Shown here piece by piece: positions 4,790-39,790 of a DNA stretch of 64,000 bases. Under the pieces are notes generated by a model. It did not search any database. It saw only the letters and a program-made list of their open reading frames with translations, and was not told where the DNA came from. Location: contig CAVPSJ010000019.1 of assembly GCA_963708295.1 (NCBI GenBank), positions 64,001 through 128,000 of the forward strand, read 5' to 3'. The translations under genes and the position numbers were made by a program. The DNA is from an uncultured delta proteobacterium. GTDB lineage: Bacteria; Desulfobacterota; BSN033; UBA1163. Every line of letters starts with the position of its first letter. Position 1 is the stretch's first letter.

Positions 4790-6164
4790 TTAAATCGATG
4801 GAACTCGGACCTTTCCCAATAATTCCGTTAAGTCAGAAACTTCCATGGACTCCAAACGTGAGACCGCACGGATGATTTCCTGGCACAACGATCGGTCCGC
4901 ATAGGGCGCTGCCAGTTTCTCGAACTTCTCGGCCGCCGTTTCCCAGGACATGGGGCGGGTCCGAAATCCTTCGTAGTCGCGCTTCTCTCTCTCCACCTTC
5001 TCGCCATCTCGAAGCGTCAATGTGACGCGGCACGGCATCTCGTCGGGAAATTCCCGGCTATATTCCGCTGAAGGCCTGATGGTCACTTTCTTCAGAAGGG
5101 ACTGAACGTCTTCCCTCTGGATGCGATCCGGTCGGTACTGCTCGGGCATCACCTGACCGTCCAGAATGGCGACAGCGACCAGGTAAGGCAGACTGTGGTC
5201 CGCCTCCTCTTTGGTCCCGACAAGCGTCTTGTCCCCTTCTTCTCCTCCGCCGATAATGTGATAGGCGACGTCGAAGATCTCAATTTCAGCCTTTGTCACA
5301 TCTTCCCCTCGTGAAACCATATTCCTGTTTCAATTCCAGGACGCCTTCCAAGGCAGACTGGGAGTGAATCTCAGCATTGTATCTCTTCAGGATCGTCAGG
5401 GTGACGCGTTCAAGATCTTCTTCCAACCAGTCGATCTCGAACTTACCGGCAACGGTCTCCATGAAACCCTTGTTCCCTTCAAACACCTCCAGAGGACCCG
5501 TGATGCCTCGCATGGCCAGGAAGGTTCCATGGGTGCAGCCGAAGGCCGTGTTCGGATAGGCCAGACCTTTCCAGTGAGAAAGCGCCCCGGTCCTGCTGAC
5601 CCGCAGGGCATTAAAGGCCGTCCCGCAGATGGCAATCGCATTCGCCGTACGGACCTCGTCCAAACCCAGCGCCTTGGAAACGCCGGCGGCGACCGCATAA
5701 GAACCCTGGGTCGTATGGTCAAAGCCTTTTGCCCGAACGGGCGCGACGTCGCTCAGACGACACTGAACCTGGTAGGCCACGGCCAGGGCGGTCAGAAGTT
5801 GCCGACCGCTTTGCTTGGCATACTCCGAAGCAGCCAGTACGGAACCGAGGTTGTCGCTGGGATGGCAGGTCTCACCCTTGGCCAGATAGCTGTCATTGAA
5901 GTCAAGATAGCGGACCAAGGCACTGTTATAGAGGGCCGCCCGGTCGGGTGCCGCTTTCCCCCCCCCGATCAGGGTACAGTGCCGGGCCCCGTCGAACTCT
6001 TCGACCTGGTCCTTGAGCATGCGAATGGGGTCTCCTTTCAGAGCTCCGATGCCGCATCCCAATCCGTCTAAGATCCGGATCTTGAGCTGACGACGGGCTT
6101 CCTCCGAAAGGTCCTCATACGAGGCCCGCACCACGAATTCAGCGAGTTGTTCAGCCTGCGTCAT
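4790..6164 (-). pseudogene. MmgE/PrpD-family protein, split by one frameshift near 5310
   Basis: N-part 5286-6164 (RYLDFNDSYL, CHPSDN, WKGLAYP, AEIHSQS) continues in another frame into 4790-5320 (EADHSLPY, DYEGFRTRPMSW); may be a sequencing indel. Confidence 0.85.
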
Positions 6165-7403: not shown

Positions 7404-8541
7404 TTACCCGAGTTCCAATTTAAGCGAAAGAAATTTCAACATGTCCTTCAGCGTGATGACGCCTACCATCCGGTTCCCTTCGATGACGATGAGACGGCCT
7501 AACCCCGTTCGGGCCATGAGGGAGAGGGCCTTCATCGCGTCGGCCTGAGGTTCGATCGTATTTTCCGGCGAGCACTGCGTCGCCAGCTCTCTCACCGTTT
7601 TGAAGTTCCACTCTTCCCGCGGGAACCCCGTCCAATTGTTTGGTGGTAACACAACCGATGAGCTTGTCAGAGTCCTCTGTCACCGGAAACATCTTGAAGT
7701 GGTATTTATAGATATAATCCTCGACGAGCTGCCTCACAGAAGCCGATGGCGGCACCGTCACCGGATCGGTCTTCATAAAGCGGCGGACCTGCTCTCCTTC
7801 CAATGCCTTTCGTATGAGGACTTGCTGATACGACATCCGGGCGGCGCCCTGCAGAAAGACTCCCGATCAAGAACGACCAGATGCCTCCGATCAGATTTCC
7901 GGTGAAGAAAAACTGGAAACACGCCGAAGAACATAAGAAGGAGTGCAAACCCTGAGCCTATCCCCGAGGCGATGCGCGTTGCCCATCGAAGGTTCTTCTT
8001 AAAGGCCCACAAGACGGCCCGAAGCATTCGGCCGCCATCCAGAGGAAATGCGGGCAAAAGATTAAAGACGGCCAGAAGGCTGTTGATATAGGCAAGGTAC
8101 AGAACGACGCCATTGATCGAGACGGGCCACCCGAAACCGCGAACGCCCAGAATGTGGATTCCATAACAGGCAAGGGCAATGACCGATGCTGGAAAGAGGC
8201 CCCACCATCGCCACCAGAAATTCGGCTTTGGCGTTGGGGGGTTCTTCTCCCATTTCAGAGACGCCGCCAAAAATAAAAAGGGTAATCCCCTTCATGGGAA
8301 TGCCAAATTTCCTGGCGACGAGAGAGTGGAAGATTTCATGGAAGATGACAGAAAGAAAAAATCCGATCGCTCCGACCACTCCCATCGCCCAGTAGGTCTG
8401 TACCGAAAGGTACTTATACCGGAATGGGAAAAAGCCCACGGCAAGGGACCAGGCAACCAGGACCGCAATAATGACCCAACTTAAGTCGACCTGGACGTCG
8501 AAACCGAAAAGTTTAAATAACTTGATCCGTCTGCCAAGCAT
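7404..8541 (-). pseudogene. Site-2 protease (M50) with C-terminal CBS pair, about four frameshifts
   Basis: HEIFH and NLLPAFPLDGGR motifs and CBS segments spread over ORFs 8062-8559, 7773-8270, 7706-7948, 7420-7836 and 7404-7652. Confidence 0.85.
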
Positions 8542-8876
8542 GGCTCTCCTCCATGACAAAAACCCTCCGCCCGTGATTTCACCCGTTCGACCACGCGAAG
8601 CCTCACCGACGCTCTTTCAATGTCTATTTTCCACTCTATCCACTGAGATGTAAATAAGCAGCATGTCGTATTTCCACTCTCTAAACCCAGTATTTTCAAC
8701 CTGGGTCCATACCTGGACTGGAGCGGATCTGCGAAAAGTGTAGATTGGGAATATTCCCTCGAAAGGAGCCTGTCTCTCGAAAATACACCATTTATGCCTA
8801 AAAAATACAGGGTTTACCCCATTTATCTCCCCCCGGCATCGGCTGTAAGCTCTTCGTTGACGAGCCAGGTGAAACA

Positions 8877-9332
8877 ATGATGGAACCGATATCCAACGTG
8901 AATGTTCTCTCCCCATGGCAGCCGGGTATTCTGGCTTTGGGCGTCTTTGCTCTGATGGGTTTGGTCTTGATCGTCGCCTTCCTTCTTCTCGCAAGCTGGC
9001 TCGGTCAGAAAAAACCGAACCCTGAAAAGGTGAGGCCCTATGAGTGTGGCATTATTCCAACGGGGTCGGCTCGAATTCCTTATCCCGTGGCTTTTTATCT
9101 CACCGCCGCATTTTTTCTCATCTTTGACGTTGAAGCCGCCTATATTTTTTCCTGGGCCATTGCCTTCGACCGCCTCGGATGGTCGGGTTGGCTGCAGATT
9201 TCCTTCTTCATCGCCATACTGATGATCAGTCTATTCTATCTCTGGAAAAAGGGAGGCCTGGAGTGGGGACCGACAGCCCGGAAACACCCAGTTTCACCGG
9301 AAACATCATCCTTGCCAAGCTCGACGGACTGA
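8877..9332 (+). CDS. nuoA: NADH-quinone oxidoreductase subunit A
   Basis: [23 protein letters not shown]; first gene of the operon. Confidence 0.96.
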
Positions 9333-11740
9333 TTAATTGGAGCCGTCAGTACAGCCTTTGGCCTCTCTTTTTTGGGACATCGTGCTGTTTTATCGAGATG
9401 GCAGCCGTTTTTACACCCCGTTTTGACATGGCCCGATTCGGGGCAGAGGTCTTGCGCGGATCTCCCCGGCAGGCCGACCTCTTGATCGTGGCAGGCACGG
9501 TCTTCAAAAAGATAGCTCCCGTTATTCTAAGAATCTATGAGCAGATGGCCGAACCCAAATGGGTGATCTCCATGGGATCCTGCTGCAATTCCGGTGGAAT
9601 GTACGACGTTTACAGCGTCGTTCAGGGGTTGAATCAAATCATCCCGGTAGACGTCCACGTCACGGGCTGCCCGCCCCGCCCCGAGGCCCTTGAACATGCG
9701 TTGACCATTTTGCAGAAGAAGATCATTTCGGAAGAAAGGCCGGCGCGTCCTGTCTTGCATCTCCGGGGCGGAACTCAGGGAACAATCCGACCCATTCTGG
9801 TCGACGGAGAAAGCAAATCCAGGGATACCCGGGGCCCTGGGATGGAAGGCATCCCCATTCGTGGGACATCCGTGACCCCGCCTTTACTCTGGGACAGTCG
9901 CTCCGACCTGATGTGGACCCCGCCTCCTCACCGGATCGAGTTGCATGACGTGGACAAATCTCTTGCACAAACGCTGAAGGAAAAATTCGGTGACGCGATC
10001 CGGCAGACTCCTGAGACCTCAGATATGTTGACTTATCATGTCGCGGAAAGTCGCGTCAAAGAAGTCTTGAAGTTTCTAAAAAACGAAACATCACCCAGAT
10101 ACCTGCGACTGGATGACTTAACTGCCATTGATGAATCAGCACGACGCGATCAAAAACCTGTAACCTATTACGACGGGACGGTGGCGCATGAGGTCAGCCC
10201 AGACGGGGAGTCCGCTCGTCCCGACAAAGGAATCTATCCGGATTACACCCTGGTTTATCACCTGCTCTCTTTTGACCCCCCGGGTCGTCTCCGTTTGAAA
10301 GTTGGACTAACAGGCAAAGACCCGGTGACCAAAACAATTACCGATGTTTGGCCTTCGGCAAGCTGGTACGAACGAGAGACTTACGAGATGTTCGGAATCC
10401 GCTTTGACGGCCACCCCGATCTTCGGCGACTGATCCTGCCCCATGACTGGGAAGGATATCCGCTGCGCAAAAGTCACCCCGGGCGCGCCACGGAGATGGC
10501 TCCCTACACGCACGCCTCTGCGGTCGAGCATCAGCCTTTGGATGCAGGAGCCTTTGTCAAGCAAAAGCAAGGGGATCAAGAGCTTCTCGTGTTGAATATA
10601 GGTCCGCAGCATGTGGGCACCCATGGGGTGATGCGGTTCGTTGTCGCCCTGGATGGAGAAAGCATAGCCGATATCAACCTCGATATCGGCTATCATCACA
10701 GAGGAGTTGAAAAGATCGGTGAACGCCAGTCGTGGCACCAATTCATCCCCTATACGGACCGGGTGGATTATATGGGAGGAGTGGCCAATAATCTTTCTTA
10801 TCTCCAATCTGTAGAAACCCTCGCCGGGATCAAGGTTCCGGAGCGAGCCCAGTTCATCCGCGTGATGCTCAGTGAAATTTTCCGGGTCAACAACCACCTC
10901 GTCTGGTTTGGCACCTGCTGCCATGACGTCGGGGCAATGACCCCAACCTTTTATACCTTCCGTGAGAGAGAACAGCTGATGGACATGGTCGAACTCATCA
11001 CGGGTGGCCGCCTTCACCCGTCCTGGTTTCGCATCGGAGGGTTGGCCATGGATCTTCCCGAAGGCTGGAAAGAAGCGGTGGATGCCTTTGTCAAAGTCCT
11101 TCGGGAGCGTATTGGAGATTATGAGGCACTGATCACCCAGAACCCAATCTTTAAAGCACGAACCCAGGGGGTGGGTGTCCTTTCCCTCAAGGATGCAATG
11201 GAATGGGGCGTGACAGGCCCTAATCTTCGGGCCTGTGGTCTGGAGTGGGACGTGAGGAAGAAATTTCCTTATTCGGGCTATGAGAATTTCAATTTCGACA
11301 TTCCTACGGCTACGGAGGGAGATTGTTACGCCCGTTATCTCGTCCGTGTGGAGGAAATACGCCAGAGTTTAAGGATTATCGAACAAGCGGCCAGCCAGAT
11401 GCCAGGCGGCAGGGTTGTGACCGACGACTACCGTTACGCAATCCCTGATAAAAAAGATACGCTGAAGGATATTGAAAGCCTCATCCATCATTTCATCAAT
11501 GTCACTCGGGGACCGAAGATCCCCAAAGGCGAGGCTTATACGGCCACTGAGATCTCCCGGGGGGAGCAGGGTTATTATGTGGTCAGTGATGGACTCAACA
11601 TGGCCTACCGAATGCGAATCAGGGCCCCGGGTTTTGCCAATGTCCAGGTCATGCCGCTCATGGCAAAAGGCGGGCTCCTTTCGGATCTTCTGGCCATCAT
11701 TGGCTCGGTCGATTACATCTTGCCGGATATTGATCGGTAA
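9263..11740 (+). CDS. nuoBCD: Fused NADH-quinone oxidoreductase subunit B/C/D
   Basis: One ORF with NuoB ([15 protein letters not shown]), NuoC ([17 protein letters not shown]) and NuoD ([17 protein letters not shown] end); probable GTG start 9263 after GGAGG. Confidence 0.95.
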
Positions 11741-12090: not shown

Positions 12091-12585
12091 ATGTTGCCAA
12101 AGGAATTACTCGAAACGTTGGAGGCAAGGATAGCGAGCGTGGATCATCCTCGGGAACTGGCCGTGGATATCATGCTGGCTTCGCAGAATCACTACGGGTA
12201 TTTGAGCGATGAAGCCCTCGAAGAAGCGGCTCGGCTTCTCGGGATGACGCCCCTTGAATTGGAGGAACTCGCTACCTTTTACGATTTTATCTACCGCGAA
12301 CCCGTAGGGAGATTCGTGATCCACGTTTGCGATGGGGTCGTCTGCTGGATGAACGGATATGATTCAGTGATGGATTATCTCCTCCGGAAACTCGGAATCA
12401 AACCCGGAGAAACAACACAGGATGGGTTGTTTACCCTACTGCCCACTGCCTGTATCGGTTACTGCGACCTGTCCCCGGCCATGTTGATCAATGGAAGGGC
12501 GTACGGTCCTCTCACCCCTGAGAAAATCGACGACATTCTCAACAGGTTGAGAGCTGAACCGCCGAAACCAAGGATGGCAAGGTGA
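12091..12585 (+). CDS. nuoE: NADH-quinone oxidoreductase subunit E
   Basis: ATFYDFIY, CDGVVC, CIGYCD 2Fe-2S ligands. Confidence 0.95.
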   Translation: MLPKELLETLEARIASVDHPRELAVDIMLASQNHYGYLSDEALEEAARLLGMTPLELEELATFYDFIYREPVGRFVIHVCDGVVCWMNGYDSVMDYLLRKLGIKPGETTQDGLFTLLPTACIGYCDLSPAMLINGRAYGPLTPEKIDDILNRLRAEPPKPRMAR

Positions 12586-12590
12586 GCTGA

Positions 12591-13887
12591 ATGGTTCCTC
12601 AAGTGATCTTCCAGAATCGCAAACCAGACCGGATTGCCACGATCGACGAGTATCGCCAAAGCGGTGGCTACGAAGCTCTCACGATGGCCTTACAGAAATA
12701 CTCTCCAAAAGAAGTCCAACAGATCGTCGTCGATGCAAACCTTCAGGGGCGTGGAGGTGCTGGTTTTCCGGCAGGGCTGAAGTGGAAATCCGTTGCGGAC
12801 CATTTTCCCTTTCCAAGGTACATCATCAGCAACATCGATGAATATGAGCCCGGCACGTTTAAAGATCGCGTGATGACCCATGCGGATCCCCATATGATTA
12901 TCGAAGGCATGATCCTCTCAGGATATGCCGTCTCAGCGGAAAAGGGGATCATTTTCGTTCGGCCTTCGTATGAGAACAGCGCCGTGATCCTCGAAAGGGA
13001 ACTGAGGATTGCCAAAGAGGCCGGCTACCTGGGGAGGAATATTCTCGGGAGTCATTTCTCCTTCGACCTGATCGTACATCGGAGCGGCGGGCGGTACATT
13101 TGCGGCGAGGGAACGGCCCAGATCAACGCCATTATGGGAAAGCGGGCCCACCCCGTCCAGTCTCCCATACGTTCGACCGAGAAGGGACTGTGGGATAAGC
13201 CCACTGTCCTCAACAATATGGAAACCCTGGTCAATGTTCCACACATCGTGAGGCATGGAGCGGAATGGTTCAAAAATCTGGCGAAGACCAAAACCAGTTC
13301 CGGAACGAAGCTCTATTGTGTCAGTGGGAAGGTAAACCGGCCCGGCTGTTTTGAACTTCCCATGGGAACCCGGTTAAGCGAAATCGTCGATGAGTGTGCT
13401 GGCGGCATGCTGCCGGGGCATGAATTTAAAACCTGTCTTCCGGGAGGAGCTTCCACTTTGTATCTTCCGAAGAAATATTACGACGTCGAGATGGACTTCG
13501 ATTCGCTCAAAAAAGTTGGAAACCGCCTCGGGACAGGGGCCATTATTGTCTTTGATCAGAAGACCTGCCTGGTTGCGGCGACGCTGAATCTGATCGAATT
13601 CTTTGTCACGAGAATCCTGCGGCTGGTGCACTCCCTGCCGGGAAGCGCTACCGTTTATCAGAGATCTGCTCTGGCGCATCGAGGCTGGAGAGGGAAGAGA
13701 AGAATTCATTCCCATGCTCCGGCGAATGAGCCAACACACGTGGAAATCCTACTGCGCTTTTGCGCCCGGGGCAACCATGCCGGTAACGAGCTTGCTGGAT
13801 CATTTCCCGGAGGAAGTGCACGAGCACATCAGCCAGAGGAAATGCCCCTACAAGGGACAATCCAGGAATAATGGAATGATGGAGTAA
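12591..13887 (+). CDS. nuoF: NADH-quinone oxidoreductase subunit F, one apparent extra base near 13605
   Basis: GRGGAGFP, DEYEPGTFKDR, YICGE; the N3 cluster motif RESCGWCTPCRE lies in shifted frame 13603-13887. Confidence 0.92.
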
Positions 13888-13970
13888 TGGAGTAATGATA
13901 ATACCAACACAAATAAATACTCTTTCTATTATTTTTCCAATATCCCAATACTCCAAGACTCCAACACTCC
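13863..13970. repeat. Octamer-periodic inverted repeat (TGGAGTAA / TACTCCAA)
   Basis: Left GGAATAATGGAATGATGGAGTAATGGAGTAATG, right CCAATACTCCAAGACTCCAACACTCC; similar copies at ~18038-18170, ~19050-19100, ~21173-21260. Confidence 0.75.
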
Positions 13971-13989: not shown

Positions 13990-16491
13990 ATGCCCAAGCT
14001 AAAGATTGACGGTATAGAAATAGAAGTCGAACAGGGAACGAAGGTCATCGAGGCCGCGGCGCGGCTGGGCATTATCATCCCACGATTTTGCTACCATAAG
14101 GGTCTTGGTTCGGTCGGTGCCTGCCGGATGTGCGCCGTGAAGCTCCTGGAAGGCCCTGTCAAAGGGATACAGATGAGCTGCATGGTGGACGCTTCCGACG
14201 GGATGGCCGTATCAACCACCGACGAAGAGGCCGTCGATTTCCGCAAGCACGTGGTCGAATGGCTTATGATGAACCATCCCCACGATTGCCCGGTCTGTGA
14301 TGAAGGCGGACACTGCTTGCTCCAGGATATGACGGTTGCAGGAGGCCACGGGATACGACGCTATCTGGGAAAAAAGAGAACCTATCACGATCAATATCTC
14401 GGCGTCTTCGTCCAGCACGAAATGAATCGCTGTATCCACTGCTGGCGATGCCGCCGGTTCTATCAGGAGTTCGCCGGCTATCGCGACCTGGGAGCCATGC
14501 AGATTGCCAACCACACCTATTTCGGCCGTTTCCAGGAAGGCCCTCTGGAGAGCCCCTTTTCCGGGAACCTTATCGATCTCTGCCCGACAGGCGTCTATAC
14601 GGACAAACCATCTCGTTTCACCGGGCGGCGATGGGATTTCCAACGTGGCCCGTCCCTCTGCATCCACTGCTCCCTTGGATGTCACATCCTTACGAGCACT
14701 CGCTATCGTGAAATCGTTCGGCTCGAAGCCCGATTCAGCGAATCGGTCAATGGTTATTTCATCTGCGACCGAGGCAGGTACGGTTTTGACTATACCCAGC
14801 ACCCCGAACGGCCAAGACGCCCGAGAGTTGGAACGGGGGAGGTTTCCTGGGAAAATGCAATCCAGAGGGCGGCAGAAAGGCTATCGGAGATTACAGAAAA
14901 GAGCGGGGCACCCTCCGTCGCCTGCCTCGGCTCGACGAGGAGCAGCCTGGAGAATCAGGCGATGCTGAAGCGCTTCTGCGAGCTTCAGGGGTGGCCGGAG
15001 CCCAAATATTTTGTGGATTCTTCGGTCGTGCGAAAGGTTAGAAAAGCGGTCTCGAGGCTGGACAAAAAGCTGGCTATCTCCATGCGAGAGATCGAGCAGG
15101 CCGATTTCATCATCGCTGTGGGCGCGGACCCTGTGAATGAAGCGCCCATGCTGACTCTGGCAATGAGGCAAGCTCACAGGCAGGGTGCAACGATTGCCGT
15201 GATCGACCCCCGGCCCATTTTTCTTCCTTTTGAATTCCATCACTTCCCGGCAACCCCAGAGGATATTCCCCCCTGCCTGAGCGTACTCATCAAAGAGGCT
15301 GTGGATCGATCCTTCGCAGAAACCCTTGGAGAGGCTGCTCTGGTTTTTTATGATCAAGTTCCGAGGAAACAGCCTTTCGATGGATTGTTCAAAGACCAGC
15401 TTGCAACGTTGGGCCAGAAGCTTCGACAAAGCAAGAACCCTGTCATCGTTTGCGGCACTGAAATTACTTCCGAGGCCACTCCCGGCCTCGCCGCCGACAA
15501 CGCCCTCCTTCTGCACGCAGCCAAAAATCGAACCGGTCTCTTCTATCTGATGCCCGGTCCGAATGCCTTTGGAGCAGCACTTCTATCCTCTGAAGAGGGT
15601 TCTTTGATGGAAGTCATGGACGCGATCGAAAGCGGGACGGTCAAGGCCTTGCTGCTGGTCGAGAGTGACCCCTTCCGGAATTTCCCGGATCAACAAAGAT
15701 TGAAGCGGGCCGTCGGGAAGCTGGATCTGCTGCTGGTCATGGACTACCTTCCTTCCGAGGCGGCTCGCGTTGCGCAGATTCTGCTGCCGACACGTACTTT
15801 ATTCGAGATGGAGACCAGTTTTGTAAACCAGGAAGGCAGGATTCAGTTCGCCCCTTCGGCGCATCGTGGTGGCATTCCAATCTCCCAGATCAGCGCGGGA
15901 AGCCATCCGCCACGCCATTTTCGAAGCGAGATCCCGGGAGGGGACCCGGAGCCTGCCTGGGTGATACTGGCCAAACTCGCCCATGCCATGTCCCTGCCGG
16001 GCAGGGAGAGGCCTTCCCTCTCCAAAAGCGAACTCTGGGAGTGGATCAAAAAAGAACATGCGGTCTTTTCTAACGTTCCGTATGCCGATCAATCGTCGGA
16101 GGGTCTTCGAATCGATCTCGAAATCGGAAAAGAGGAACCTTTCCCACGACCCATCCACTCTGAAAAAGATCATCGAAGAGACGGCGAATTAGAACTCCTG
16201 GTTTCGGATTGGACTTTCGGAACGGAAGAGCTTTCCGCCTATTCCAAATTTATCCATCAGGTTGAGGAAGAACCGTGTCTCTTTATGAACCCGAAAGACG
16301 CCTCGAGGATAGGGTTGAAAGATAAAGAGAGGATCACGCTCCACCTCGATAGAGTCCCGTTGGAGGTGGCGTTGCATGTCGCTGACAATGTGGCTCCGGG
16401 CGTGATCATTCTGCCGAAGCATCGACAACTTCCATGGCAACAGATCGGGAGGCGGCCGCTGAAAGTCGGCATTGACCGGATAAGAAAGTAG
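13990..16491 (+). CDS. nuoG: NADH-quinone oxidoreductase subunit G (long form with N7-type motif)
   Basis: IPRFCYH, GACRMC, HPHDCPVCDEGGHC, RCIHCWRC, CPTG, CIHCSLGC...CDRG. Confidence 0.96.
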   Translation: MPKLKIDGIEIEVEQGTKVIEAAARLGIIIPRFCYHKGLGSVGACRMCAVKLLEGPVKGIQMSCMVDASDGMAVSTTDEEAVDFRKHVVEWLMMNHPHDCPVCDEGGHCLLQDMTVAGGHGIRRYLGKKRTYHDQYLGVFVQHEMNRCIHCWRCRRFYQEFAGYRDLGAMQIANHTYFGRFQEGPLESPFSGNLIDLCPTGVYTDKPSRFTGRRWDFQRGPSLCIHCSLGCHILTSTRYREIVRLEARFSESVNGYFICDRGRYGFDYTQHPERPRRPRVGTGEVSWENAIQRAAERLSEITEKSGAPSVACLGSTRSSLENQAMLKRFCELQGWPEPKYFVDSSVVRKVRKAVSRLDKKLAISMREIEQADFIIAVGADPVNEAPMLTLAMRQAHRQGATIAVIDPRPIFLPFEFHHFPATPEDIPPCLSVLIKEAVDRSFAETLGEAALVFYDQVPRKQPFDGLFKDQLATLGQKLRQSKNPVIVCGTEITSEATPGLAADNALLLHAAKNRTGLFYLMPGPNAFGAALLSSEEGSLMEVMDAIESGTVKALLLVESDPFRNFPDQQRLKRAVGKLDLLLVMDYLPSEAARVAQILLPTRTLFEMETSFVNQEGRIQFAPSAHRGGIPISQISAGSHPPRHFRSEIPGGDPEPAWVILAKLAHAMSLPGRERPSLSKSELWEWIKKEHAVFSNVPYADQSSEGLRIDLEIGKEEPFPRPIHSEKDHRRDGELELLVSDWTFGTEELSAYSKFIHQVEEEPCLFMNPKDASRIGLKDKERITLHLDRVPLEVALHVADNVAPGVIILPKHRQLPWQQIGRRPLKVGIDRIRK

Positions 16492-16498
16492 GGAAGAG

Positions 16499-17494
16499 AT
16501 GGTTTTAGAATGGTCTTTGGGATTCATTCTCTTGGTCGTTAAACTGAGCGTTGTGCTGATCCTCCTGCTGACGTGCGCAGCCTACCTGGTTTGGGTTGAA
16601 CGCAAACTTCTGGGAAGAATGCAGGCACGGTATGGTCCGAACAGGGCCGGGCGTTACGGGCTGCTTCAGCCCATGGCGGATGTCATCAAATTGATCACCA
16701 AAGAAGATACGGTGCCCGAGGGCGCCAGCAAAATCATATTTCTCCTTGCCCCGGGCGTGGTCGCCCTCATGGCTTTGCTCATTTTTGCCGTCGTCCCTTT
16801 TGGAAGGAACATCACGCTCTGGGGGAGGCCCGTCCCCCTGGTCATCACAGACCTGAATATCGGATTGCTCTTCGTCCTCGCTCTCTCTTCCATCGGTGTT
16901 TATGGAATCGCTCTGGGCGGATGGGCCTCCAACTCGAAATACAGCCTGCTCGGCGGCATCCGCGGCGTTGCTCAAATGATCAGCTACGAAATCCCTCTGG
17001 GACTCTCCGTCGTTCCGGTGATCATGCTTGCCCGTTCCTTCAGCCTGGTGGATATCACCGACGCGCAGAGCGAATATCCCTTCATCCTTGTCCAGCCGGT
17101 TTCGTTCGTTATCTTTTTGATAGCAGCCGTTGCTGAAATTAAGAGGATTCCCTTCGATTTGCCCGAAGCCGAAAATGAGCTGGGCGCAGGGTATCATACC
17201 GAGTACAGCGGCATGCGTTTTGGTCTTTTCTTTCTGGGCGAGTATATCACCCTGATTATCTTGGGTTCACTGGTGGCCGTCTTTTTTTTAGGGGGATGGC
17301 ATGGTCCGTTGCTTCCACCCATCCTCTGGTTCCTTGTGAAGGTGGGGGGCATCGTTTTCATGCTCATCTGGTTTCGGGCCACCTTCCCCAGAATTCGATA
17401 CGATCAGCTCATGAATACCGGCTGGAAAGTGCTCATCCCGGCTGCCCTGTTAAACATCATCGCGACGGGCGCGTTCATTTTGGTGAAGACCTAG
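16499..17494 (+). CDS. nuoH: NADH-quinone oxidoreductase subunit H
   Basis: [32 protein letters not shown]. Confidence 0.97.
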
Positions 17495-17507: not shown

Positions 17508-18029
17508 ATGGAAGGCTTAAAAGCGTTAATAAAAGGGCTTGCCACCACCTTGAAAATTCTTTTCCGAAAGCCCGTCACCGAGCAGTATCCGGAGGTTAAA
17601 CGGCTCCTGCCCGCAAGGTCCCGGGCCGTCATCATCCTCACGCGCGATCCGGACGGAGAAGAGCGCTGCGTGGCCTGCTATCTCTGCTCGGCGGTCTGCC
17701 CGGTCAGTTGTATCTCCATGCAGTCAGCCCAGCGCGGGGACGGACGCCGTTACCCCCGATGGTTTCGTATCAATTTTGCCCGCTGTATTTACTGCGGTCT
17801 TTGTGAGGAGGCATGCCCGACGCTTGCCATTCAATTGACTCCTCATTTCGAGACGAGCCAACGGGATATTTTGAAGCTTGTCTATGAGAAAGAAGACCTA
17901 CTGGTCAATCATGGCGGAAAGAACAAGGATTACAATTTCTACCGATATGCTGGCGTCACCATGGTGGGGGATAAAGGAACCCATATTGACGAACAGAAAC
18001 CGGTCGATTTGAAGAGCAACCTTCCGTAG
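17508..18029 (+). CDS. nuoI: NADH-quinone oxidoreductase subunit I
   Basis: Two 4Fe-4S motifs [12 protein letters not shown] and [12 protein letters not shown]. Confidence 0.96.
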
Positions 18030-18218
18030 TAACCACCTGGAGTAATGGAGTAACGGAGTAGTGAAAAAAAGGCAAAAGAATCTGGAACAATGGAATCGTG
18101 GAATAATGGGAAAACAATTAAAACCTTTATACCCAATATTCCATTCTTCCAATATTCCAGTATTCCTGAACACTCTATCGGAGGTCTGAACTGACTCTTC
18201 CATGCCGTTATCTTTTAT

Positions 18219-18737
18219 GTGCTCGGCATCGTCATCCTGACGGCAACGGGACTCGCCGTCACCCGGCGGCAACCGGTTCATGCCGTGCTCTATCTGATCG
18301 TTGCTTTCTTGGGCACAGCAGCTCTTTTCTTCCTGCTTGGGGCACCGCTCTTGGCCGCCTTCGTGGTCATCATCTACGCAGGGGCGATCCTGGTCCTCGT
18401 CCTATTTGTGATCATGCTGCTTCAGCGGTCTCCCCGGGAGCTCAGTTTGCGGTCTGAGTGGGGGCCTGCCGTGCTTTTGGGAATCATCTTTCTCGCCGTT
18501 GCCGTTGCGACGGTCTTCAAGGACCCCGGCAGCAGAATCGTCCTCCAGGGCGCTGTCGCCCAGCCCCGCGACTTCGGTCGTTTCCTCTTCGACAGATACT
18601 GGCTGGCCGTTGAGATCGTCTCCATCCTGTTTCTCGTTGCTCTGGTGGCTATCCTTCACTTAGGTAAGAGAAGGGAAGCGGACGGCGACGAGGACCCCGT
18701 TAGAAATCCCAACGGGGCAAAGGAGGGCCACTCATGA
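18219..18737 (+). CDS. nuoJ: NADH-quinone oxidoreductase subunit J
   Basis: PVHAVLYL, IIYAGAILVL; in-frame upstream codons LFHAVIFY and a GGAGG SD at ~18180 suggest a true start near 18191 that is out of frame. Confidence 0.9.
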   Translation: MLGIVILTATGLAVTRRQPVHAVLYLIVAFLGTAALFFLLGAPLLAAFVVIIYAGAILVLVLFVIMLLQRSPRELSLRSEWGPAVLLGIIFLAVAVATVFKDPGSRIVLQGAVAQPRDFGRFLFDRYWLAVEIVSILFLVALVAILHLGKRREADGDEDPVRNPNGAKEGHS

Positions 18738-19039
18738 TCGTTCCTTTAGGCCATGTCTTTCTTCTGGCAGGGATTGTCTTCGCCATGGGCCTCGTCTGTC
18801 TCGTGGCCCACCGAAACTTAATTATGACACTCATCGGTGTGGAAGTGATGATGAATGCGGCGGCCATCGCCTTCGTCGCGGCGGCCTTGCGCTGGAGGTT
18901 GATGGAAGGGCAAGCCTTTGTCCTCTTCATCCTCGCGGTGTCCGCGGCCGAGATCTCCTTGGGGCTGGCGCTGGTCGTCAGTCTGTATCGACGAACCGGC
19001 TCGATCGATCCGGACCGTTACGACATCTTGAAATGGTAG
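18734..19039 (+). CDS. nuoK: NADH-quinone oxidoreductase subunit K
   Basis: RNLI, EVMMNAA, GQAF, AAEISLGLAL. Confidence 0.96.
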   Translation: MIVPLGHVFLLAGIVFAMGLVCLVAHRNLIMTLIGVEVMMNAAAIAFVAAALRWRLMEGQAFVLFILAVSAAEISLGLALVVSLYRRTGSIDPDRYDILKW

Positions 19040-19112
19040 TTAAAGAAACTGGAATAATGGAACGCTGGACCCATCATTCCAATATTCCATTATTCCATCC
19101 GGGTCTCCGGGC

Positions 19113-19215: not shown

Positions 19216-19248
19216 TTATTGGATGAAAACAACCGAGGTAAGCCAACA

Positions 19249-21132
19249 ATGACTTCCTGGTTACAAGATCCGACGTTGATGGCAGCGATACTGACCACGT
19301 GGCTGCCCTTCATCTCTTTCCTGCTCATCATGGTGTTCACCAGGAATCATCGGCGCCTCTCAGGCGTAATCGCTGTTGCGGCGGTGACCGGCTCGGTCGC
19401 GGGGGCCGTCTTCCTGCTGACGCGACACTGGGGTGCCGGCCATCCCATCCACTACTCGTCAAGATGGCTCATCGCGGGCGATCTCTCCATCCCCTTCGGG
19501 TTTCTACTGGACCCGGTGAGCCTGCTCATGCTCCTTCTGGTGGCGGGCATCAGTTTTCTCGTTCAGGTGTATTCCTTCGGCTACATGGCCGGCGACCCGG
19601 GGTTCTCTCGCTACTACGCTTTTCAGTCGTTGTTCGCCTGGGCCATGATGACCTTGAGCATCTCTTCGGCCATGCTTCAGCTTTACGTTTTCTGGGAGCT
19701 GGTCGGGCTTTCGTCGTATCTGCTTATCGGTTTCTGGTACGAGAAATTCAGCGCCACCCAGGCGGGAAAGAAGGCCTTTGTCATGACCCGTCTGGGCGAC
19801 GTTGCGTTTTTCATCGGCCTTCTGCTGGTACTGCTTCACCTGGGGAACGTGGACATCCTGGAGATGAACAGTCCCGAGGCAGCGGCCAGCATGAACTCCG
19901 GGTTTCTGACCCTGGCGTCACTGTTGATCTTCGGCGGAATCGTAGGCAAGAGCGCTCAGTTTCCGCTGATGACGTGGCTGCCAGACGCCATGGAGGGCCC
20001 CACACCGGTCAGCGCCCTGCTCCACTCTGCCACCATGGTAGCCGCAGGAGTCTATCTTTTCGCCCGCCTGTTTCCTTTCTTCAGCCATTCGGCAGACGCC
20101 ATGACCGTGTTTCTGGCCATCGGCACTGTCTCCATGCTCCTGGCCTCCACTATGGCCATGGTCAGCCGGGACATCAAGCGGGTCTGGGCGTATTCCACCA
20201 TCAGCCAGCTGGGGTTGATGATCATGGGGCTTGCTGCGGGAAGCCTCTTCGCGGGGACCTTTCATCTCACCACTCATGCGGGCTTCAAAGCGCTGCTTTT
20301 CCTCTGTTCAGGCATTTGGGTCCATCTGTACGAGACGAACGATGTGTACGAGATCTCCAGGCGCGGAGGTCGACGGTTGAAGACTCCGATGGTGTGTTTG
20401 GTCATCGCAGCGGCAGCCCTTTCCGGACTGCCGCCGTTCTCGGGCTTTTTCAGTAAAGAGGCCGTGCTCGGGGCACTGGCCGGACTGGAGAGCCCCGCCT
20501 GGCTGGCGGCCGGGTTACTCGGCGTCTTCCTCACCGCTTACTACGCGTTCCGGCTGATATTCATCATTCTCTTCCCGCGGGAAGAAATTCAGAGAGAGCC
20601 TGCCCCTCATAGAACGGAAGGGATGGGCGCTCTCTACTGGGCCATGGGTTTACCGCTACTCATCCTGGCCGGTGTGACCGTGGTGCTGGGGTTTCTGGAG
20701 ATTCCGCTCCGTGAGTTTCTCTCAGGGGGCATGACCGCCCACACGTATGGGGATCATACATGGCTTCCCTATATCAGCGTACTGCTGGCAGTCCTGGGTG
20801 TGGGTATCGCCTGGTTTGAGTTTGGCCGCCGCGCTGCCCCTCAGGTCGGTTTCGTCGAGAAGCTCCCGGTACTTAAGGAGCTCTTTGCCCAACGCTGGTA
20901 TCTGGACCATGCGTACCGGAGATTTGTGGACACCGTGATCGACGGTCTCCTTTCCAAGGGATGCGCCAAGAACGAAGACAGGGTGATCAACAAAAGCATC
21001 GATGGGTTCTGCGACTTCATTTTGGACAGCGGTTACCTGTTGTCCTTTCTGCAGTCCGGAAAACTGAGGTACAATCTTATCGTCATGTTCGCCGCCCTGG
21101 CTTTGGTGGCGTTGTACTTTTTGTTCGCTTAG
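19249..21132 (+). CDS. nuoL: NADH-quinone oxidoreductase subunit L
   Basis: WELVGLSSYLLIGFW, GKSAQFP, WLPDAMEGPTPVSALLHSATMV, HAGFKALLF. Confidence 0.97.
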   Translation: MTSWLQDPTLMAAILTTWLPFISFLLIMVFTRNHRRLSGVIAVAAVTGSVAGAVFLLTRHWGAGHPIHYSSRWLIAGDLSIPFGFLLDPVSLLMLLLVAGISFLVQVYSFGYMAGDPGFSRYYAFQSLFAWAMMTLSISSAMLQLYVFWELVGLSSYLLIGFWYEKFSATQAGKKAFVMTRLGDVAFFIGLLLVLLHLGNVDILEMNSPEAAASMNSGFLTLASLLIFGGIVGKSAQFPLMTWLPDAMEGPTPVSALLHSATMVAAGVYLFARLFPFFSHSADAMTVFLAIGTVSMLLASTMAMVSRDIKRVWAYSTISQLGLMIMGLAAGSLFAGTFHLTTHAGFKALLFLCSGIWVHLYETNDVYEISRRGGRRLKTPMVCLVIAAAALSGLPPFSGFFSKEAVLGALAGLESPAWLAAGLLGVFLTAYYAFRLIFIILFPREEIQREPAPHRTEGMGALYWAMGLPLLILAGVTVVLGFLEIPLREFLSGGMTAHTYGDHTWLPYISVLLAVLGVGIAWFEFGRRAAPQVGFVEKLPVLKELFAQRWYLDHAYRRFVDTVIDGLLSKGCAKNEDRVINKSIDGFCDFILDSGYLLSFLQSGKLRYNLIVMFAALALVALYFLFA

Positions 21133-21281
21133 GACGTCGCCGAATGGACTCGGTGATTTAGTTGTCGCAGTCGGAGTAATGGAATATTGGAGTGATGGAG
21201 TAATGGTCATGTCTTTTTTCTTTTTTATCTCCAACATTGCAGTACTCCAGCACTCCATTTATCCAGTCTGAGAGTACACCA

Positions 21282-22763
21282 ATGAATGTTGAAGTGGCTC
21301 ATTTTCCGTATCTTTCCGCCATCCTTCTCAGCTGCGTGGTGGGCCTTGTGGTCATCCTTTTCATTCCCCGCGAGCGAGAAACCCTGGTCAAGGGGGTAAG
21401 CCTGGTCTTTTCGGGGATCGCTCTGGCGCTTTCCATCTATGTTTTTTGCGCGTATGACAGGGCGCAGGGAGGCCTTCAGTTCGTAGAGAAAGTGCTTTGG
21501 GTGGAGCGGCTGGGAATTCACTACTTCAACGGAGCGGACGGCTTCAACCTTCCTTTGATCCTCCTCACCGGGATTGTGCACTTCACCGGCGTTTTAACGA
21601 TGTGGGAGTTAAAGGGACGGGTCAAGGAGTTCTTCGCCTTTACCTCCGTGCTCGTCCTCGGCGTCTTCGGATTCTTCATGAGTATGGATCTCTTCTTTCT
21701 CTTCGTCTGGTACGACGTCTCCCTTTTCCCCATGTATCCGCTCATCGCCATCTGGGGAACGACGCGAAAGGAGTACGGGGCGCTGAAACTCTTCCTTTAC
21801 CTCCTGGCGGGAAGCGCCCTGGTCCTTCCGGGCATCGTGTATCTCGCGGTGGTCTCAGGGTTGCACACCTTCGACATCTTGGCCCTCATGCAGCCGGGGG
21901 CCTTGACGCCCGGGCAGCAGAGGTTTGCCTTCATCCTCTTTTATCTCGGCTTCGGGATCCTCGCGGGCGTCTGGCCTTTTCATACGTGGTCGCCCGTTGG
22001 CCACGTGGCCGCGCCCACATCCGTGAGCATGATTCACGCTGGAGTCCTGATGAAGGTCGGCGCCTTCGGAATTCTGCGGGTTGCGATTTTTCTCTGCCCG
22101 ATCGGGTGGGCGTACTGGGCGCCCGTGATGGCCGTTTTGGCAACCATCGGCATCGTCTATGGAATCTTCGTCGGGCTGAGACAGACCGACCTCAAGTATG
22201 TGGTTGCCTTTTCCAGCGTCTCCCACATGGGGATCGTGGGGCTGGGGCTTTCCACAGTCACTGCGGAGGGGCTCAACGGGGCTGTCTTTCAGATGTTTGC
22301 CCACGGCATCATGACCGCGCTTCTCTTCTCATCCCTGGGTTACATCTACGACAAGACACACACCAAATTGATCCCGGAACTTGGCGGAATGAGCAGGGTC
22401 ATGCCCGTGGCCTCGGGTTACTTCATCGTGGCTGCACTGGCCGGAATGGGGGTACCCGGTTTCGCCAGTTTCTGGGCGGAGGTGACGGTCTTCATCTCTG
22501 CTCTCGAGGTCTACCCCGTCCTGGGCGTGCTGGCCATCTGTGCCGTGGTCCTGAGCGCCCTCTACATGCTGAGGGTGGTGCAGAAAACCTTCTACGGGGA
22601 ACGGAACGAACGCTACGCTCATCTGCCAGACGTCTCCTTCAGCCTCGGCCTGCCCAGGATGATCCTGGTTGCGGTCATGGTTCTCTTCGGCCTGTTTCCC
22701 AGACTGATGCTCGATCTCATTCAAACGGCTGTCATTCCATTGATGGGAGGGGCGCCCAGATGA
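21282..22763 (+). CDS. nuoM: NADH-quinone oxidoreductase subunit M
   Basis: PFHTWSP..HVAAPT, HAGVLMKVG, SSVSHMG, QMFAHG. Confidence 0.95.
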   Translation: MNVEVAHFPYLSAILLSCVVGLVVILFIPRERETLVKGVSLVFSGIALALSIYVFCAYDRAQGGLQFVEKVLWVERLGIHYFNGADGFNLPLILLTGIVHFTGVLTMWELKGRVKEFFAFTSVLVLGVFGFFMSMDLFFLFVWYDVSLFPMYPLIAIWGTTRKEYGALKLFLYLLAGSALVLPGIVYLAVVSGLHTFDILALMQPGALTPGQQRFAFILFYLGFGILAGVWPFHTWSPVGHVAAPTSVSMIHAGVLMKVGAFGILRVAIFLCPIGWAYWAPVMAVLATIGIVYGIFVGLRQTDLKYVVAFSSVSHMGIVGLGLSTVTAEGLNGAVFQMFAHGIMTALLFSSLGYIYDKTHTKLIPELGGMSRVMPVASGYFIVAALAGMGVPGFASFWAEVTVFISALEVYPVLGVLAICAVVLSALYMLRVVQKTFYGERNERYAHLPDVSFSLGLPRMILVAVMVLFGLFPRLMLDLIQTAVIPLMGGAPR

Positions 22764-24172
22764 AGTGGTTGATCCTCGGGCCGGAGATTTACTTTCTCGC
22801 AGTCGCCGCCGTATTCCTCATCTTCTCCATGACGCGCCCGAAGGGGAGGCGTGATTTCTCGGCTGCCTTATTCCTCGCCGGCCTTGGGGTGGCGGTGACG
22901 CTGGCGGCCGTCCGCCTGGAGGGATCCCTTTTCCACGGAGCTTATCGAGTCGATCTCTTCTCCCAACTCTTCAAGGGCTTGTTGTCCGTTGGATTCTTCC
23001 TCGTGGTCTGTCTCTGCTCAAACCTGAAAGGAATTCACGAGACAAAGCAACCGGAGTTCTATCTTCTGCTGGCAACCTGTACCCTGGGCATGATGTTGTT
23101 GGTCAGCAGCCTCGAACTACTGACCCTCTATGTCGCACTCGAGCTGGCCAGTTACTCGCTCTATGCCCTCGTCCCGTTGAGAAGCGGCAGCGGCCAGCAG
23201 ATCGAGGCCGGGATCAAGTACTTTCTTACGGGGATCGCCACCTCGGCCCTGATGCTTTTCGGCTTAGCCTCTCTGTTCGCGGCGACGCAGACCACCTTGA
23301 TCAGTGAGCTGATTCTGAAGCTGCCCGCCTTGCTCAACACCCCCATGGCCTTCATCGGGCTGCTGCTCACCCTGTGCGGTTTTTTCTTCAAGCTGGCCCT
23401 CTTTCCGTTCCACGTCTGGGCACCCAGCGTGTACCAGGGAGCCGCAAATCAGGTGACGGCGTTTCTGGCCACTGCCACAAAGGTAACGGCCATGGCCATG
23501 CTCGTCCGCCTGGTATCCATGAGCGACGGCAACATATCCTTGGCCCACGTGCTCATCGCGCTTGCCATCGTCTCCATGACCTACGGGAACCTGGTCGCGC
23601 TGGTTCAGAAGGACTTCAAGCGCCTGCTGGCTTATTCGGCCATCGCCCATGCGGGCTACTCGCTCATCGGCATCCTCAGCATGAATCCAACCGGCTACGC
23701 CGCCGCGGTCTTCTACGCCCTGGCTTACCTCGCCATGACCTTCACTTGTTTCCTCGTCGTGGTGAAGGTCGCATCGGACGGCCGCGACCTCCCGATCGTC
23801 CAGCTGGCGGGGCTTCACCGTCGCTCGCCGCTCCTGGCCATGGCGCTCATGGTGGGCGTGTTCAGCTTGGGGGGTATCCCTCCGACGATCGGATTCACCG
23901 GGAAGTTCCTGGTCTTTAATGCGGCCATGGAGAGAGGATACTTTCTGTTGGTCCTCATCGCCATGATCAACGTGGTCGTTTCTCTCTACTATTACATCCT
24001 GGTGGTGAAAGCGGCTTTCCTCCTCGAGCCGGACGAGGAGCTACCGCCCATCCATCTCTCTGCCCCTGCGACCCTTCTCACTGTGGTGATGGTTCTCGTG
24101 ATCGTCGTAGGGGGTATTTGGCCGGGCCAGCTCTTCGAGTTGGCTCGGACCGCCGTGCAAACACTCCGGTAA
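22760..24172 (+). CDS. nuoN: NADH-quinone oxidoreductase subunit N
   Basis: ATGA overlap with the nuoM stop; EAGIKYF, FKLALFPFHVWAPSVYQG, KRLLAYSAIAHAGY. Confidence 0.96.
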   Translation: MKWLILGPEIYFLAVAAVFLIFSMTRPKGRRDFSAALFLAGLGVAVTLAAVRLEGSLFHGAYRVDLFSQLFKGLLSVGFFLVVCLCSNLKGIHETKQPEFYLLLATCTLGMMLLVSSLELLTLYVALELASYSLYALVPLRSGSGQQIEAGIKYFLTGIATSALMLFGLASLFAATQTTLISELILKLPALLNTPMAFIGLLLTLCGFFFKLALFPFHVWAPSVYQGAANQVTAFLATATKVTAMAMLVRLVSMSDGNISLAHVLIALAIVSMTYGNLVALVQKDFKRLLAYSAIAHAGYSLIGILSMNPTGYAAAVFYALAYLAMTFTCFLVVVKVASDGRDLPIVQLAGLHRRSPLLAMALMVGVFSLGGIPPTIGFTGKFLVFNAAMERGYFLLVLIAMINVVVSLYYYILVVKAAFLLEPDEELPPIHLSAPATLLTVVMVLVIVVGGIWPGQLFELARTAVQTLR

Positions 24173-25459: not shown

Positions 25460-26654
25460 TCATCCTTTTTTATTTAGTGCGGTCAGGGCGAGACAGAGCA
25501 GAAACCCTGTCAGGGAAACGATCAGCGTTGATTGAAAAGAACCCGTCGAATCCTTAAGATACCCGCCGGAGATCGTCCCCAAAAACTGCCCGATGCCGTG
25601 GATTAAAGTGACCAATCCGTAGACAGAAGCCCTTTTTTCACCGATCCGGTCTCCAACGGATGCCGCCACCACAGTGACTGTTCCTAAGAACGTCCCCCCG
25701 AAAAGAAAGGCTGAAAAACCCATGAAGAAAGTCTGATGAAGCAGCAGAGGAAGGAGGACGGAAAGCGAGATGATCCCGTTGTTCCAGAGCAATGCCTTCC
25801 GTCGACCCAAACGGTCTGAAAGGTATCCCCAGAGGAGTCCGCTCCCCGTACACATCCAGCCAAAAATGGCCCAGATATCCCCTGCCGTTTTCGCTGTCAG
25901 TCGAATCTCTTCTATCATATAAGCAACAAAGTAGGTCGCATAGATGTTATAAGAGAATCCAAAGATGAAATAGATGACAAAAATGGCCTTCAGGGTGAGT
26001 TCTTCACTCTCTCTCTTGAAGAGGTAGTCGCTTCTTCTCTCCATCAAGACTGGGAGCGAGAAAAGCGGTCTGGCCCGGTTTCTCTTTCAATAATATCCAT
26101 CCGAGGACGGCAACCGAAAAAGTGATCAACGCCAGAAGGAACCAGCACTGTCTCCAGGCCTCCTTTCCCAAACTGAGGAGAAGATAGGGAAGCAGGAGGC
26201 CCGTGACAATAATACCAAGGCCTGTCCCGCCTGTGACGACGCCAACGGCCCTGCCCAGTCTTCGCTCTTCGAACCAGACCATGGGTAAAGTGGTTATGGA
26301 GATGTGAGAACCCGCAGCCCCTGCTCCCATGGCAAAGCTGAAAAAGAGAAGGGAAGGAAATCCTGATAATCTGCTGATGAAGAACATGGAAAGTGCCCCG
26401 CACAGGAGAGAAGCGATCACAATCCTCTTCGGCCCGAATCGCGTGGCTAACATTCCACCAATGAGCGAAAAGAGAAGGTAACCCAGCATGATGGCTCCGC
26501 TCAAAAGCCCCATCTCGCTGTAATTGAACGAGAGCGATGCTCGCATATTGGGCAAAAGCATGGGATAAGCAAACCGGCCAAACCCCAGACCCGTCATCTT
26601 GACGAGGACCCCCACTCCTACAATCACCCAACCGTAGTGGATCGCTTTCATCAT
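25460..26654 (-). pseudogene. MFS transporter (YbfB/YjiJ-like), one frameshift near 26030
   Basis: N-half 26004-26654 (GFGRFAYPMLLP) and C-half 25460-26047 (WGYLSDRLGRR) lie in different frames. Confidence 0.82.
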
Positions 26655-39567: not shown

Positions 39568-39790
39568 AACCCACCCCCTCCTTGACGGATTCAACCACGC
39601 TACGCGCATAGCGCCAAGCACTTAGCGCCTTTCCATAGATACATAGATACCAAAATTTCTATACCGAAACAAGCAATTTCTGTTCCTCTCCGATTGATTT
39701 TGGTTGCTTTTGGGGTGCCCGTTTGTTAGATTTGAACTATATCGCTTTTTTGTTTCGAGGGATAACGTTAATCAAGCCAGGAGGAATCGA

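Follow-up and report, generated by a model that had tools for sequence, protein, structure and literature searches.

A rebuilt adenosine pocket in the NuoF subunit of complex I from uncultured Desulfobacterota, and its plausible use of NADPH

To our knowledge, complex I is treated as a strictly NADH-linked enzyme, the glutamate that binds the adenosine ribose in its NuoF subunit is counted among the invariant residues, and NADPH:quinone activity has been obtained only by engineering the Escherichia coli enzyme. Here we describe a 64,000-nucleotide stretch of DNA (contig CAVPSJ010000019.1 of assembly GCA_963708295.1, positions 64,001 to 128,000; hereafter the window) from an uncultured Thermodesulfobacteriota (Desulfobacterota) of the sulfate-reducer type, whose nuo operon encodes a NuoF in which this glutamate and three further adenosine contacts are replaced. 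A first-pass annotation of the window had read such changes as the signature of a natural NADPH-oxidizing complex I. We find that the window's pocket is inherited, invariant in its subclade and under purifying selection; judged by residue identities and engineered analogues, the enzyme is plausibly NADPH-using.

Nucleotide sites of the closest described systems

In the NADH-bound Thermus structure 3IAM, the adenine makes stacking contacts with F70, F78 and F205, and the adenosine ribose is held by E185 (PMC4694087). Thermus K202 swings to bind NADH and corresponds to K276 of the formate dehydrogenase subunit FdsB, whose E259 hydrogen-bonds the ribose (PMC7171172). The wild-type formate dehydrogenase of Rhodobacter capsulatus (RcFDH) is inactive with NADP+, and the FdsB substitutions E259G, E259R, E259K, E259Q, K276A and L279R each confer such activity (PMC10671435). 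The most efficient of them, E259G, can also reduce CO2 with NADPH. Because E259D gains no NADP+ activity, removal of the charge is what matters (PMC10671435).

We placed FdsB E259 at Thermus E185 and L279 at F205 by motif spacing (+17 and +20) together with the published equivalence of K276 and K202. On this placement, Gly174, Ser191 and Arg194 of the window's NuoF are natural counterparts of E259G, K276A and L279R. The window matches both the Arg at the L279/F205 position and the lack of Lys at K276/K202, although K276A has Ala where the window has Ser. FdsB differs in belonging to a soluble formate dehydrogenase, not to complex I, and its variants are engineered, poor and non-additive.

The E183 variants of E. 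coli complex I alter the same residue of the same subunit and enzyme, and remove the carboxylate as in the window. Morina et al. are said to have observed in 2011 that such Glu variants show NADPH-driven proton translocation and form more reactive oxygen species, and reportedly called NADPH:ubiquinone oxidoreductase activity one absent from nature. Each of these variants is a lone laboratory substitution, the rest of the pocket being canonical, whereas the window's change is natural and ancient and is accompanied by K200 to Ser, F203 to Arg and the loss of a third stacking residue. Replacement of the E. coli Glu by Gln or His raised the affinity for NADPH (Morina et al. 2011, J Biol Chem 286:34627, as cited in PMC10671435). 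The first-pass annotation had built on two points, ribose binding by the Glu (Thermus E185, PMC4694087) and a gain of NADPH use upon its substitution; the sources give the ribose contact and the raised NADPH affinity.

Two further systems are relevant. Clade E complex I (the E. coli/Nitrosococcus type; Spero et al. 2015, PMC4453560), whose holders as listed there include Geobacter and Syntrophobacter, shares the fusion of NuoC to NuoD with the window, but in the window NuoB is fused too, and the pocket lacks the Glu, Lys and Phe of the 20 Glu-type loci listed below. HytB of Clostridium autoethanogenum, the NuoF homologue of an NADP-specific bifurcating hydrogenase (PMC5861303), is a natural NuoF-family flavoprotein that uses NADP; it differs in being part of a soluble bifurcating hydrogenase. 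A residue-level NAD/NADP rule for NuoF-type subunits was not found in the available portions of PMC9304861, PMC5861303 and PMC11647496, and PMC8965080, considered as a source of such a signature, concerns a GltD/Nfn-like subunit instead. In the open-access papers and bioRxiv preprints that we searched, neither a natural complex I linked to NADPH nor the missing Glu of this lineage is described.

The adenosine pocket of the window's NuoF and its distribution

The window's nuoF (Table 1) adjoins nuoE and nuoG within the nuo operon, as expected of NuoF, and its residues 1-339 match E. coli NuoF structures (E 1e-95, the best structural match). The domain set recognized by Pfam is complete, with Complex1_51K and SLBB in frame 0 and NADH_4Fe-4S in the +1 frame, and the translation of 12591-13871 contains GRGGAGFPAGLKWKS, NIDEYEPGTFKDR and RYICGEGTAQINAIMGKRAHPVQSPIRSTEKGLW. 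The enzyme is certainly a complex I. We mapped its pocket onto E. coli by HMMER alignment to full-length NuoF (7awt_F), which is ungapped over the pocket stretch, and onto Thermus Nqo1 through the coordinates of 2fug_1 (query 4-172 corresponding to chain 60-228), window residue r being Thermus r+11.

With its motifs YICGEGTAQ, HPVQSPIRS and KWKS, the window's NuoF carries Ser, Gly, Ser and Arg in place of the canonical adenosine contacts F78, E185, K202 and F205 of Thermus, all four of which are thereby replaced; F70, K75 and E184 are retained. The glycine loop that binds flavin mononucleotide (FMN) and pyrophosphate, GRGGAGFP, and the NIDEYEPG (DExEPG) motif are also kept and are conserved in the subclade. 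Going by these residue identities, the pocket has been remodeled on its adenosine side, and its flavin and nicotinamide side is untouched. The motifs and codons quoted in the first-pass annotation (GGA at 13110-13112, CGT at 13170-13172) are present in both the sequence and its translation, and the glycine loop and DExEPG motif (here DEYEPG) are intact, as it had said. Its third change, KWSF to KWKS, stands for the Ser at F78, but the Lys is not unusual (Aquifex NuoF has KWKF) and E. coli NuoF itself has Leu, not Phe, at the F78 position.

The reading frame of the window's nuoF is lost after ...NLIEFFV (to 13607), and the Fe-S motif RESCGWCTPCRE, which keeps the N3 [4Fe-4S] cysteine pattern ESCGxCxPCR, resumes in the +1 frame at 13609. 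In relatives this pattern is unbroken; the consensus of 123 of them is FFVRESCGWCTPCRE, so the window's nuoF has one surplus base. Apart from this insertion the gene carries no other lesion, with about 5% divergence from its relative P0004. Three further genes of the window (Table 1) are each split into two overlapping open reading frames (ORFs) in different frames. A G4 run and an AG repeat occur where these ORFs overlap, and the splits suggest assembly indels. As there are four such breaks in 64 kb and 119 intact relatives, the insertion at 13608 is likely an assembly indel, and probably an assembly error rather than pseudogenization. A programmed frameshift at this position was set aside; the frame of the relatives runs through it uninterrupted.

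Among 5.8 billion proteins searched, 119 close relatives at 77-95% identity were listed, all of them intact in that the C-terminal Fe-S domain PF10589 is in one piece (119/119). YICGEGTAQ is present in every one of the 120 subclade sequences (the window counted), Gly174 and Arg194 are both fixed, and the negative charge of the ribose site is therefore absent throughout. Position 191 is Ser in 72 members, Pro in 29, Ala in 13, Gly in 5 and Thr in 1, and never Lys. By comparison, the canonical Glu occupies the site in 99/99 Glu-type rows of the alignment, and the pattern goes beyond chance. The window's nucleotide site is certainly non-canonical and under selection. The first-pass annotation had judged a lone sequencing error unlikely, which the Gly and Arg shared by 120/120 sequences confirm; it had asked whether close relatives show Glu, and the 119 listed have Gly throughout. 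As to the pseudogene that it had considered, the frameshift is real in this sequence, but drift is excluded by the intact relatives.

The loss of Glu extends well beyond these sequences. Within the best 150 of about 14,800 NuoF-family representatives in a 50%-identity library, the lineage stands isolated: one full-length representative stands at 64% identity and the next full-length one, which is canonical, at 49%. We also scanned species-representative genomes with the clade alignment and obtained 80 loci among the matches listed, none of them more than 70% identical to the window, so that the operon context of the immediate subclade rests on the window itself and locus L078. Glu is absent from 60 of these 80 loci (Gly, Val, Ala, once Asn), all 60 from Desulfobacterota-type metagenome-assembled genomes (MAGs), including Desulfobacterales, Syntrophobacteraceae, Desulfococcaceae, Desulfarculales and others. 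The remaining 20 are of the Glu type (EE...KPPFP) and come from Gammaproteobacteria, Nitrospirales, Acetobacteraceae, Eisenbacteria and Nitrosomonas. The best 120 relatives of one Desulfobacterales locus (L044), all from MAGs or metagenomes, have Val at the site in 118 cases, Gly in 1 and Ala in 1.

Phylogenetic analysis places this loss on a single lineage. In a FastTree phylogeny of 187 NuoF-family rows, the 78 rows of non-Glu NuoFs from Desulfobacterota group together as a single clade with support 100, which lies within the E. coli-type group. The clade was recovered with 36/36 rows by IQ-TREE (75 rows, posterior mean site frequency mixture model, quick search, pocket or trait columns removed; SH-like approximate likelihood ratio support 100), nested among Glu-bearing clade-E-type NuoFs with support 99, in a tree of NuoF only where the original definition of clade E used concatenated subunits. 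Loss of the Lys at position 191 falls on exactly one FastTree branch, that of the non-Glu clade. The window's subclade has supports of 99 and 100, and only there are Gly and Arg combined; its nearest outlier, L078, still has the Tyr. The loss of Glu is thus far older and wider than the Gly and Arg pair. The first-pass annotation had asked whether these two co-occur in a clade: they are fixed together in 120/120 subclade members, but sister groups have Val or Ala and keep Tyr or Phe.

Other positions differ between the two types. Arg, His or Lys occupies the F205 position in 45/87 non-Glu rows of the NuoF family versus 2/100 Glu-type rows, and a non-hydrophobic residue the F78 position in 85/87 versus 19/100. 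A scan for columns with conservation of 75% or more among Glu-type rows that the non-Glu clade has nearly always given up returned four positions (Thermus numbering): A148 to Glu, E185 to Gly, Val or Ala, R200 to Lys, Val or Gln, and G242 to Ala. The first is Glu137 in the window (12999-13001) and is Glu in 74/78 members of the clade; the Ala it replaces is 93% conserved in Glu-type NuoFs. The sole Glu-type rows with a basic residue at F205 are those of two Nitrosomonas loci, L055 and L079 (NuoF ~10490), which keep the Glu (CGEETAQ), yet have Arg at F205 (PRPKIPRPS) and Leu at F78. Gly and KPPRS also occur together in an unrelated 577-aa protein (P0199), for which a protein atlas returned only generic NuoF/HoxF/HndC-like names.

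NADPH as a possible donor and the competing explanations

From the pocket residues and their engineered analogues, we give slightly better than even credence to a functional complex I in which the filter restricting it to NADH is gone and NADPH serves as a physiological donor, alongside or in preference to NADH. The carboxylate that hydrogen-bonds the ribose of adenosine and repels the 2'-phosphate is missing from the window's NuoF, and Gly174 would make room for the phosphate. The NADH-engaging Lys is lost to Ser191 and two of the three adenine-stacking aromatics to Ser67 and Arg194, and positive charge is gained from Arg194 and usually also Lys66. Arg194 could both stack on the adenine and neutralize the phosphate, and electrons would pass from FMN through the Fe-S chain to menaquinone as usual, with proton pumping.

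A more reducing NADPH pool would offer a menaquinone-linked complex I about 100 mV of extra driving force, E' being about -280 mV for NADH, -380 mV for NADPH and -74 mV for menaquinone (PMC9304861, Table 1). For a pump moving 4 H+ per 2 e- (PMC11677225), we calculate the largest sustainable protonmotive force as ~103 mV with NADH and ~153 mV with NADPH. A wider claim, that the Desulfobacterota complex I lineage is a widespread natural NADPH:menaquinone oxidoreductase with an NADPH-preferring flavin site, clearest in the Gly and Arg subclade and capable of full pumping from the NADPH pool, is one that the same residues and analogues allow us to raise only tentatively.

If these enzymes do use NADPH, accounts of how sulfate reducers and syntrophs conserve energy would change: catabolic NADPH could feed the quinone pool with no transhydrogenase in between, and the driving force would be ~100 mV larger, which would help account for a 4 H+ pump working with menaquinone. 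The proteins would also be starting points shaped by evolution, not impaired by mutation, for hydrogenases, formate dehydrogenases and complex I that depend on NADPH. A large, environmentally abundant lineage with Glu absent in every member is a direct natural test of nucleotide specificity in NuoF-type subunits.

Several observations weigh against NADPH use. The window's own nuoF copy is frameshifted. The FdsB variants are relaxed in specificity, with a Km of 3-6 mM for NADP+ and NAD+ activity kept, and combined changes are not additive (PMC10671435). In most sister groups the Glu site holds Val or Ala, the F205 position is still Tyr or Phe and no positive charge is added, and in some of their NuoFs position 66 is Glu (with patterns such as FKETEVQKPPPYP). 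Given these sister groups, the original loss of Glu need not be an adaptation to NADP; Glu may have been lost in the lineage for another reason, and the full signature is confined to the window's subclade. The co-variation described above amounts to four (well-supported) to six independent transitions and is non-significant (sign-test p 0.125-0.6). With the NADH-contacting Lys gone, NADH and NADPH might both bind less tightly.

An AlphaFold2 model of P0004, an intact relative 95% identical to the window's NuoF, has a mean predicted local distance difference test score of 80.3 and a predicted template modeling score of 0.75, but it is ligand-free and moderate at the pocket (block means of 68-77 over residues 161-200), and block means fall below 50 at residues 55-57 and 85-89. 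The NCBIfam NuoF equivalog TIGR01959 gives P0004 477.1 bits, below its cut-off of 558.65. Because this family model misses these proteins, pipelines give them generic names; relatives are called at NCBI, for example, 'complex I 51 kDa subunit family protein' or 'SLBB domain-containing protein'. The inference of an NADP(H) site in the first-pass annotation survives in part: the changes are genuine, lie at adenosine-binding residues, are fixed and match NADP+-using FdsB variants, but the loss of Glu predates the Gly and Arg pair.

A serious rival, especially for the Val and Ala groups, although we think it rather unlikely for the window, is that the enzyme is still an NADH:menaquinone oxidoreductase whose pocket tunes NADH/NAD+ affinity, product release, reversibility or the flavin, with NADPH use incidental or absent. 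The canonical Glu may be dispensable in strict anaerobes, for example if control of reactive oxygen is irrelevant there. Consistent with this, the wider lineage is dominated by Val and Ala with Tyr retained and no positive charge added, engineered Glu variants retain NAD+ activity (PMC10671435), and the Glu-bearing neighbors in the tree belong to largely aerobic groups (Gammaproteobacteria, Nitrospirales, Acetobacteraceae), with non-Glu rows all from Desulfobacterota. However, plain relaxation should leave some Glu, Asp or Gln, and these occur at the site in none of the 60 listed loci, the 120 subclade members and the 120 relatives of L044. Four contacts have shifted in concert, and the subclades have each settled on a different outcome (Gly and Arg in 120/120, Val in 118/120), which argues for selection for a new pocket. 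In RcFDH, moreover, every charge removal tested admitted NADP+ and harmed NAD+ kinetics, with Km up by as much as 62-fold (PMC10671435).

It is improbable that the NuoEFG module (N-module) lacks the usual nicotinamide dinucleotide role altogether and serves another nucleotide-like donor or acts as an Fe-S/FMN docking module. Three of the four canonical adenosine contacts are indeed lost, and nuoEFG occurs without nuoBCD within 10 kb in 8 of the 50 listed non-Glu loci with sufficient upstream sequence, Syntrophobacteraceae-type loci among them. The residues for FMN, pyrophosphate and nicotinamide (the Gly-rich loop, F70, K75, E184 and DExEPG) are nevertheless intact, the 422-aa protein has NuoF's three Pfam domains without the extra clusters of bifurcating (Bfu-type) homologues, and the window's gene sits in a standard nuo operon. 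The relatives, at 402-436 aa, likewise consist of NuoF's three domains only and lack the Fe-S/ferredoxin extensions of Bfu-type homologues.

The least credible account puts the motifs down to sequencing error, or to drift in a pseudogene killed by the frameshift: the insertion at 13608 and the three other split genes would fit it, but identical residues in 119/119 intact relatives from independent samples rule out error or drift as the origin of the motifs, and the ~5% difference from P0004 without a second lesion and four splits in 64 kb fit an indel-prone assembly.

The nuo operon in the window and in the non-Glu lineage

The window's nuoF lies in a 12-gene operon on the plus strand, consisting of nuoA, a fused nuoBCD and nuoE to nuoN (Table 1). 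The full nuoA-N operon announced in the first-pass annotation is thus there, each gene recognized by Pfam, with nuoB, nuoC and nuoD fused. Single tblastn alignments in relatives span query residues 1-853 of the fusion. As relatives align from about residue 42, its true start is probably at about 9300-9340.

Table 1. Features of the window discussed in the text
Feature	Position	Strand	Basis or remark
PrpD/MmgE-like gene, split	4790-5320 + 5286-6164	-	Overlapping ORFs
M50 peptidase gene, split	7773-8270 + 8062-8559	-	Overlapping ORFs
nuoA	8877..9332	+	Pfam Oxidored_q4, E 4e-33
nuoBCD, fused, longest ORF, 853 aa	9179..11740	+	Pfam Oxidored_q6, Complex1_30kDa and Complex1_49kDa in one ORF
nuoE, [2Fe-2S] thioredoxin-like subunit	12091..12585	+	Pfam 2Fe-2S_thioredx, E 3e-45
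nuoF, whole	12591..13887	+	Two frames, joined across extra base 13608
nuoF part 1, FMN/nucleotide-binding and SLBB domains, residues 1-339	12591..13607	+	Pfam Complex1_51K, SLBB
Lys66-Ser67, codons AAA TCC	12786..12791	+	At E. coli S74-L75; Ser67 at Thermus F78
Gly174, codon GGA	13110..13112	+	At E. coli E183 / Thermus E185, the ribose-binding Glu
Val189...Ser191...Arg194	13155..13172	+	Replace E. coli R198, K200, F203 (Thermus R200, K202, F205)
Ser191, codon TCT	13161..13163	+	At E. coli K200 / Thermus K202
Arg194, codon CGT	13170..13172	+	At E. coli F203 / Thermus F205
Extra base (A)	13608	+	Relative to relatives; shifts frame between FFV and RESCGWCTPCRE
nuoF part 2, N3 [4Fe-4S] region, +1 frame	13609..13887	+	Pfam NADH_4Fe-4S, E 1e-20, frame from 13603
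nuoG	13990..16491	+	Pfam Fer2_4, NADH-G_4Fe-4S_3, Fer4_Nqo3, Molybdopterin
nuoH	16499..17494	+	Pfam NADHdh, E 3e-124
nuoI	17508..18029	+	Pfam Fer4 family matches
nuoJ	18219..18737	+	Pfam Oxidored_q3
nuoK	18734..19039	+	Pfam Oxidored_q2
nuoL	19219..21132	+	Pfam Proton_antipo_N and Proton_antipo_M; probable start ATG 19249
nuoM	21237..22763	+	Pfam Proton_antipo_M; probable start ATG near 21282
nuoN, 470 aa from ATG 22760	22760..24172	+	Pfam Proton_antipo_M; last part of ORF 21497-24172
Major facilitator superfamily (MFS) transporter gene, split	25460-26047 + 26004-26654	-	Overlapping ORFs
DndB (DNA-sulfur-modification-associated) domain ORF	38440-39621	-	Among ORFs without Pfam match

Across the lineage, the fused nuoBCD is present in 41 of the 50 listed non-Glu loci with at least 3.5 kb of upstream sequence, nuoE lies directly upstream of the non-Glu nuoF in 59/60, and nuoH is found in 35 of the 41 whose downstream sequence reaches 5 kb or more. 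These counts make the non-Glu loci mostly bona fide complex I operons. The eight loci with nuoE and usually nuoG but no nuoBCD within ~10 kb (L002, L004, L006, L008, L013, L016, L024 and L025) are mostly labeled Syntrophobacteraceae or Syntrophobacter, and six of them also lack a downstream nuoH; their NuoEF(G) module may serve another enzyme.

NuoM of the non-Glu lineage falls into two classes, at least 55% identical to the window's protein in 17 loci and 28-34% identical in eight (L011, L020, L031, L042, L043, L047, L060 and L078), as in the canonical Glu-type operons. In most of these eight, NuoL and NuoN follow suit when compared with the window's genes (19219-24172), and the two kinds of operon may have swapped genes of the membrane arm.

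Tandem repeats of 8 nt (GGAGTAAT-like, 3-4 copies) occur in the spacers 3' of nuoF, nuoI, nuoK and nuoL (13865-13970, 18038-18166, 19050-19098 and 21173-21257), each array being followed by roughly complementary repeats (CCAATATT/TCCAATAC-like). As RNA, these spacers form long imperfect hairpins with z-scores of -2.9, -2.7, -4.9 and -4.0, and the repeat unit includes a Shine-Dalgarno-like GGAG, a TAA and an ATG. The spacer between nuoBCD and nuoE has no such fold (z -0.6), and an Rfam scan of the window gave no matches. Elsewhere in the window, the DndB-domain ORF lies within a stretch of lower GC content (0.42-0.46 at 32-40 kb), a region that may be a mobile or defense island.

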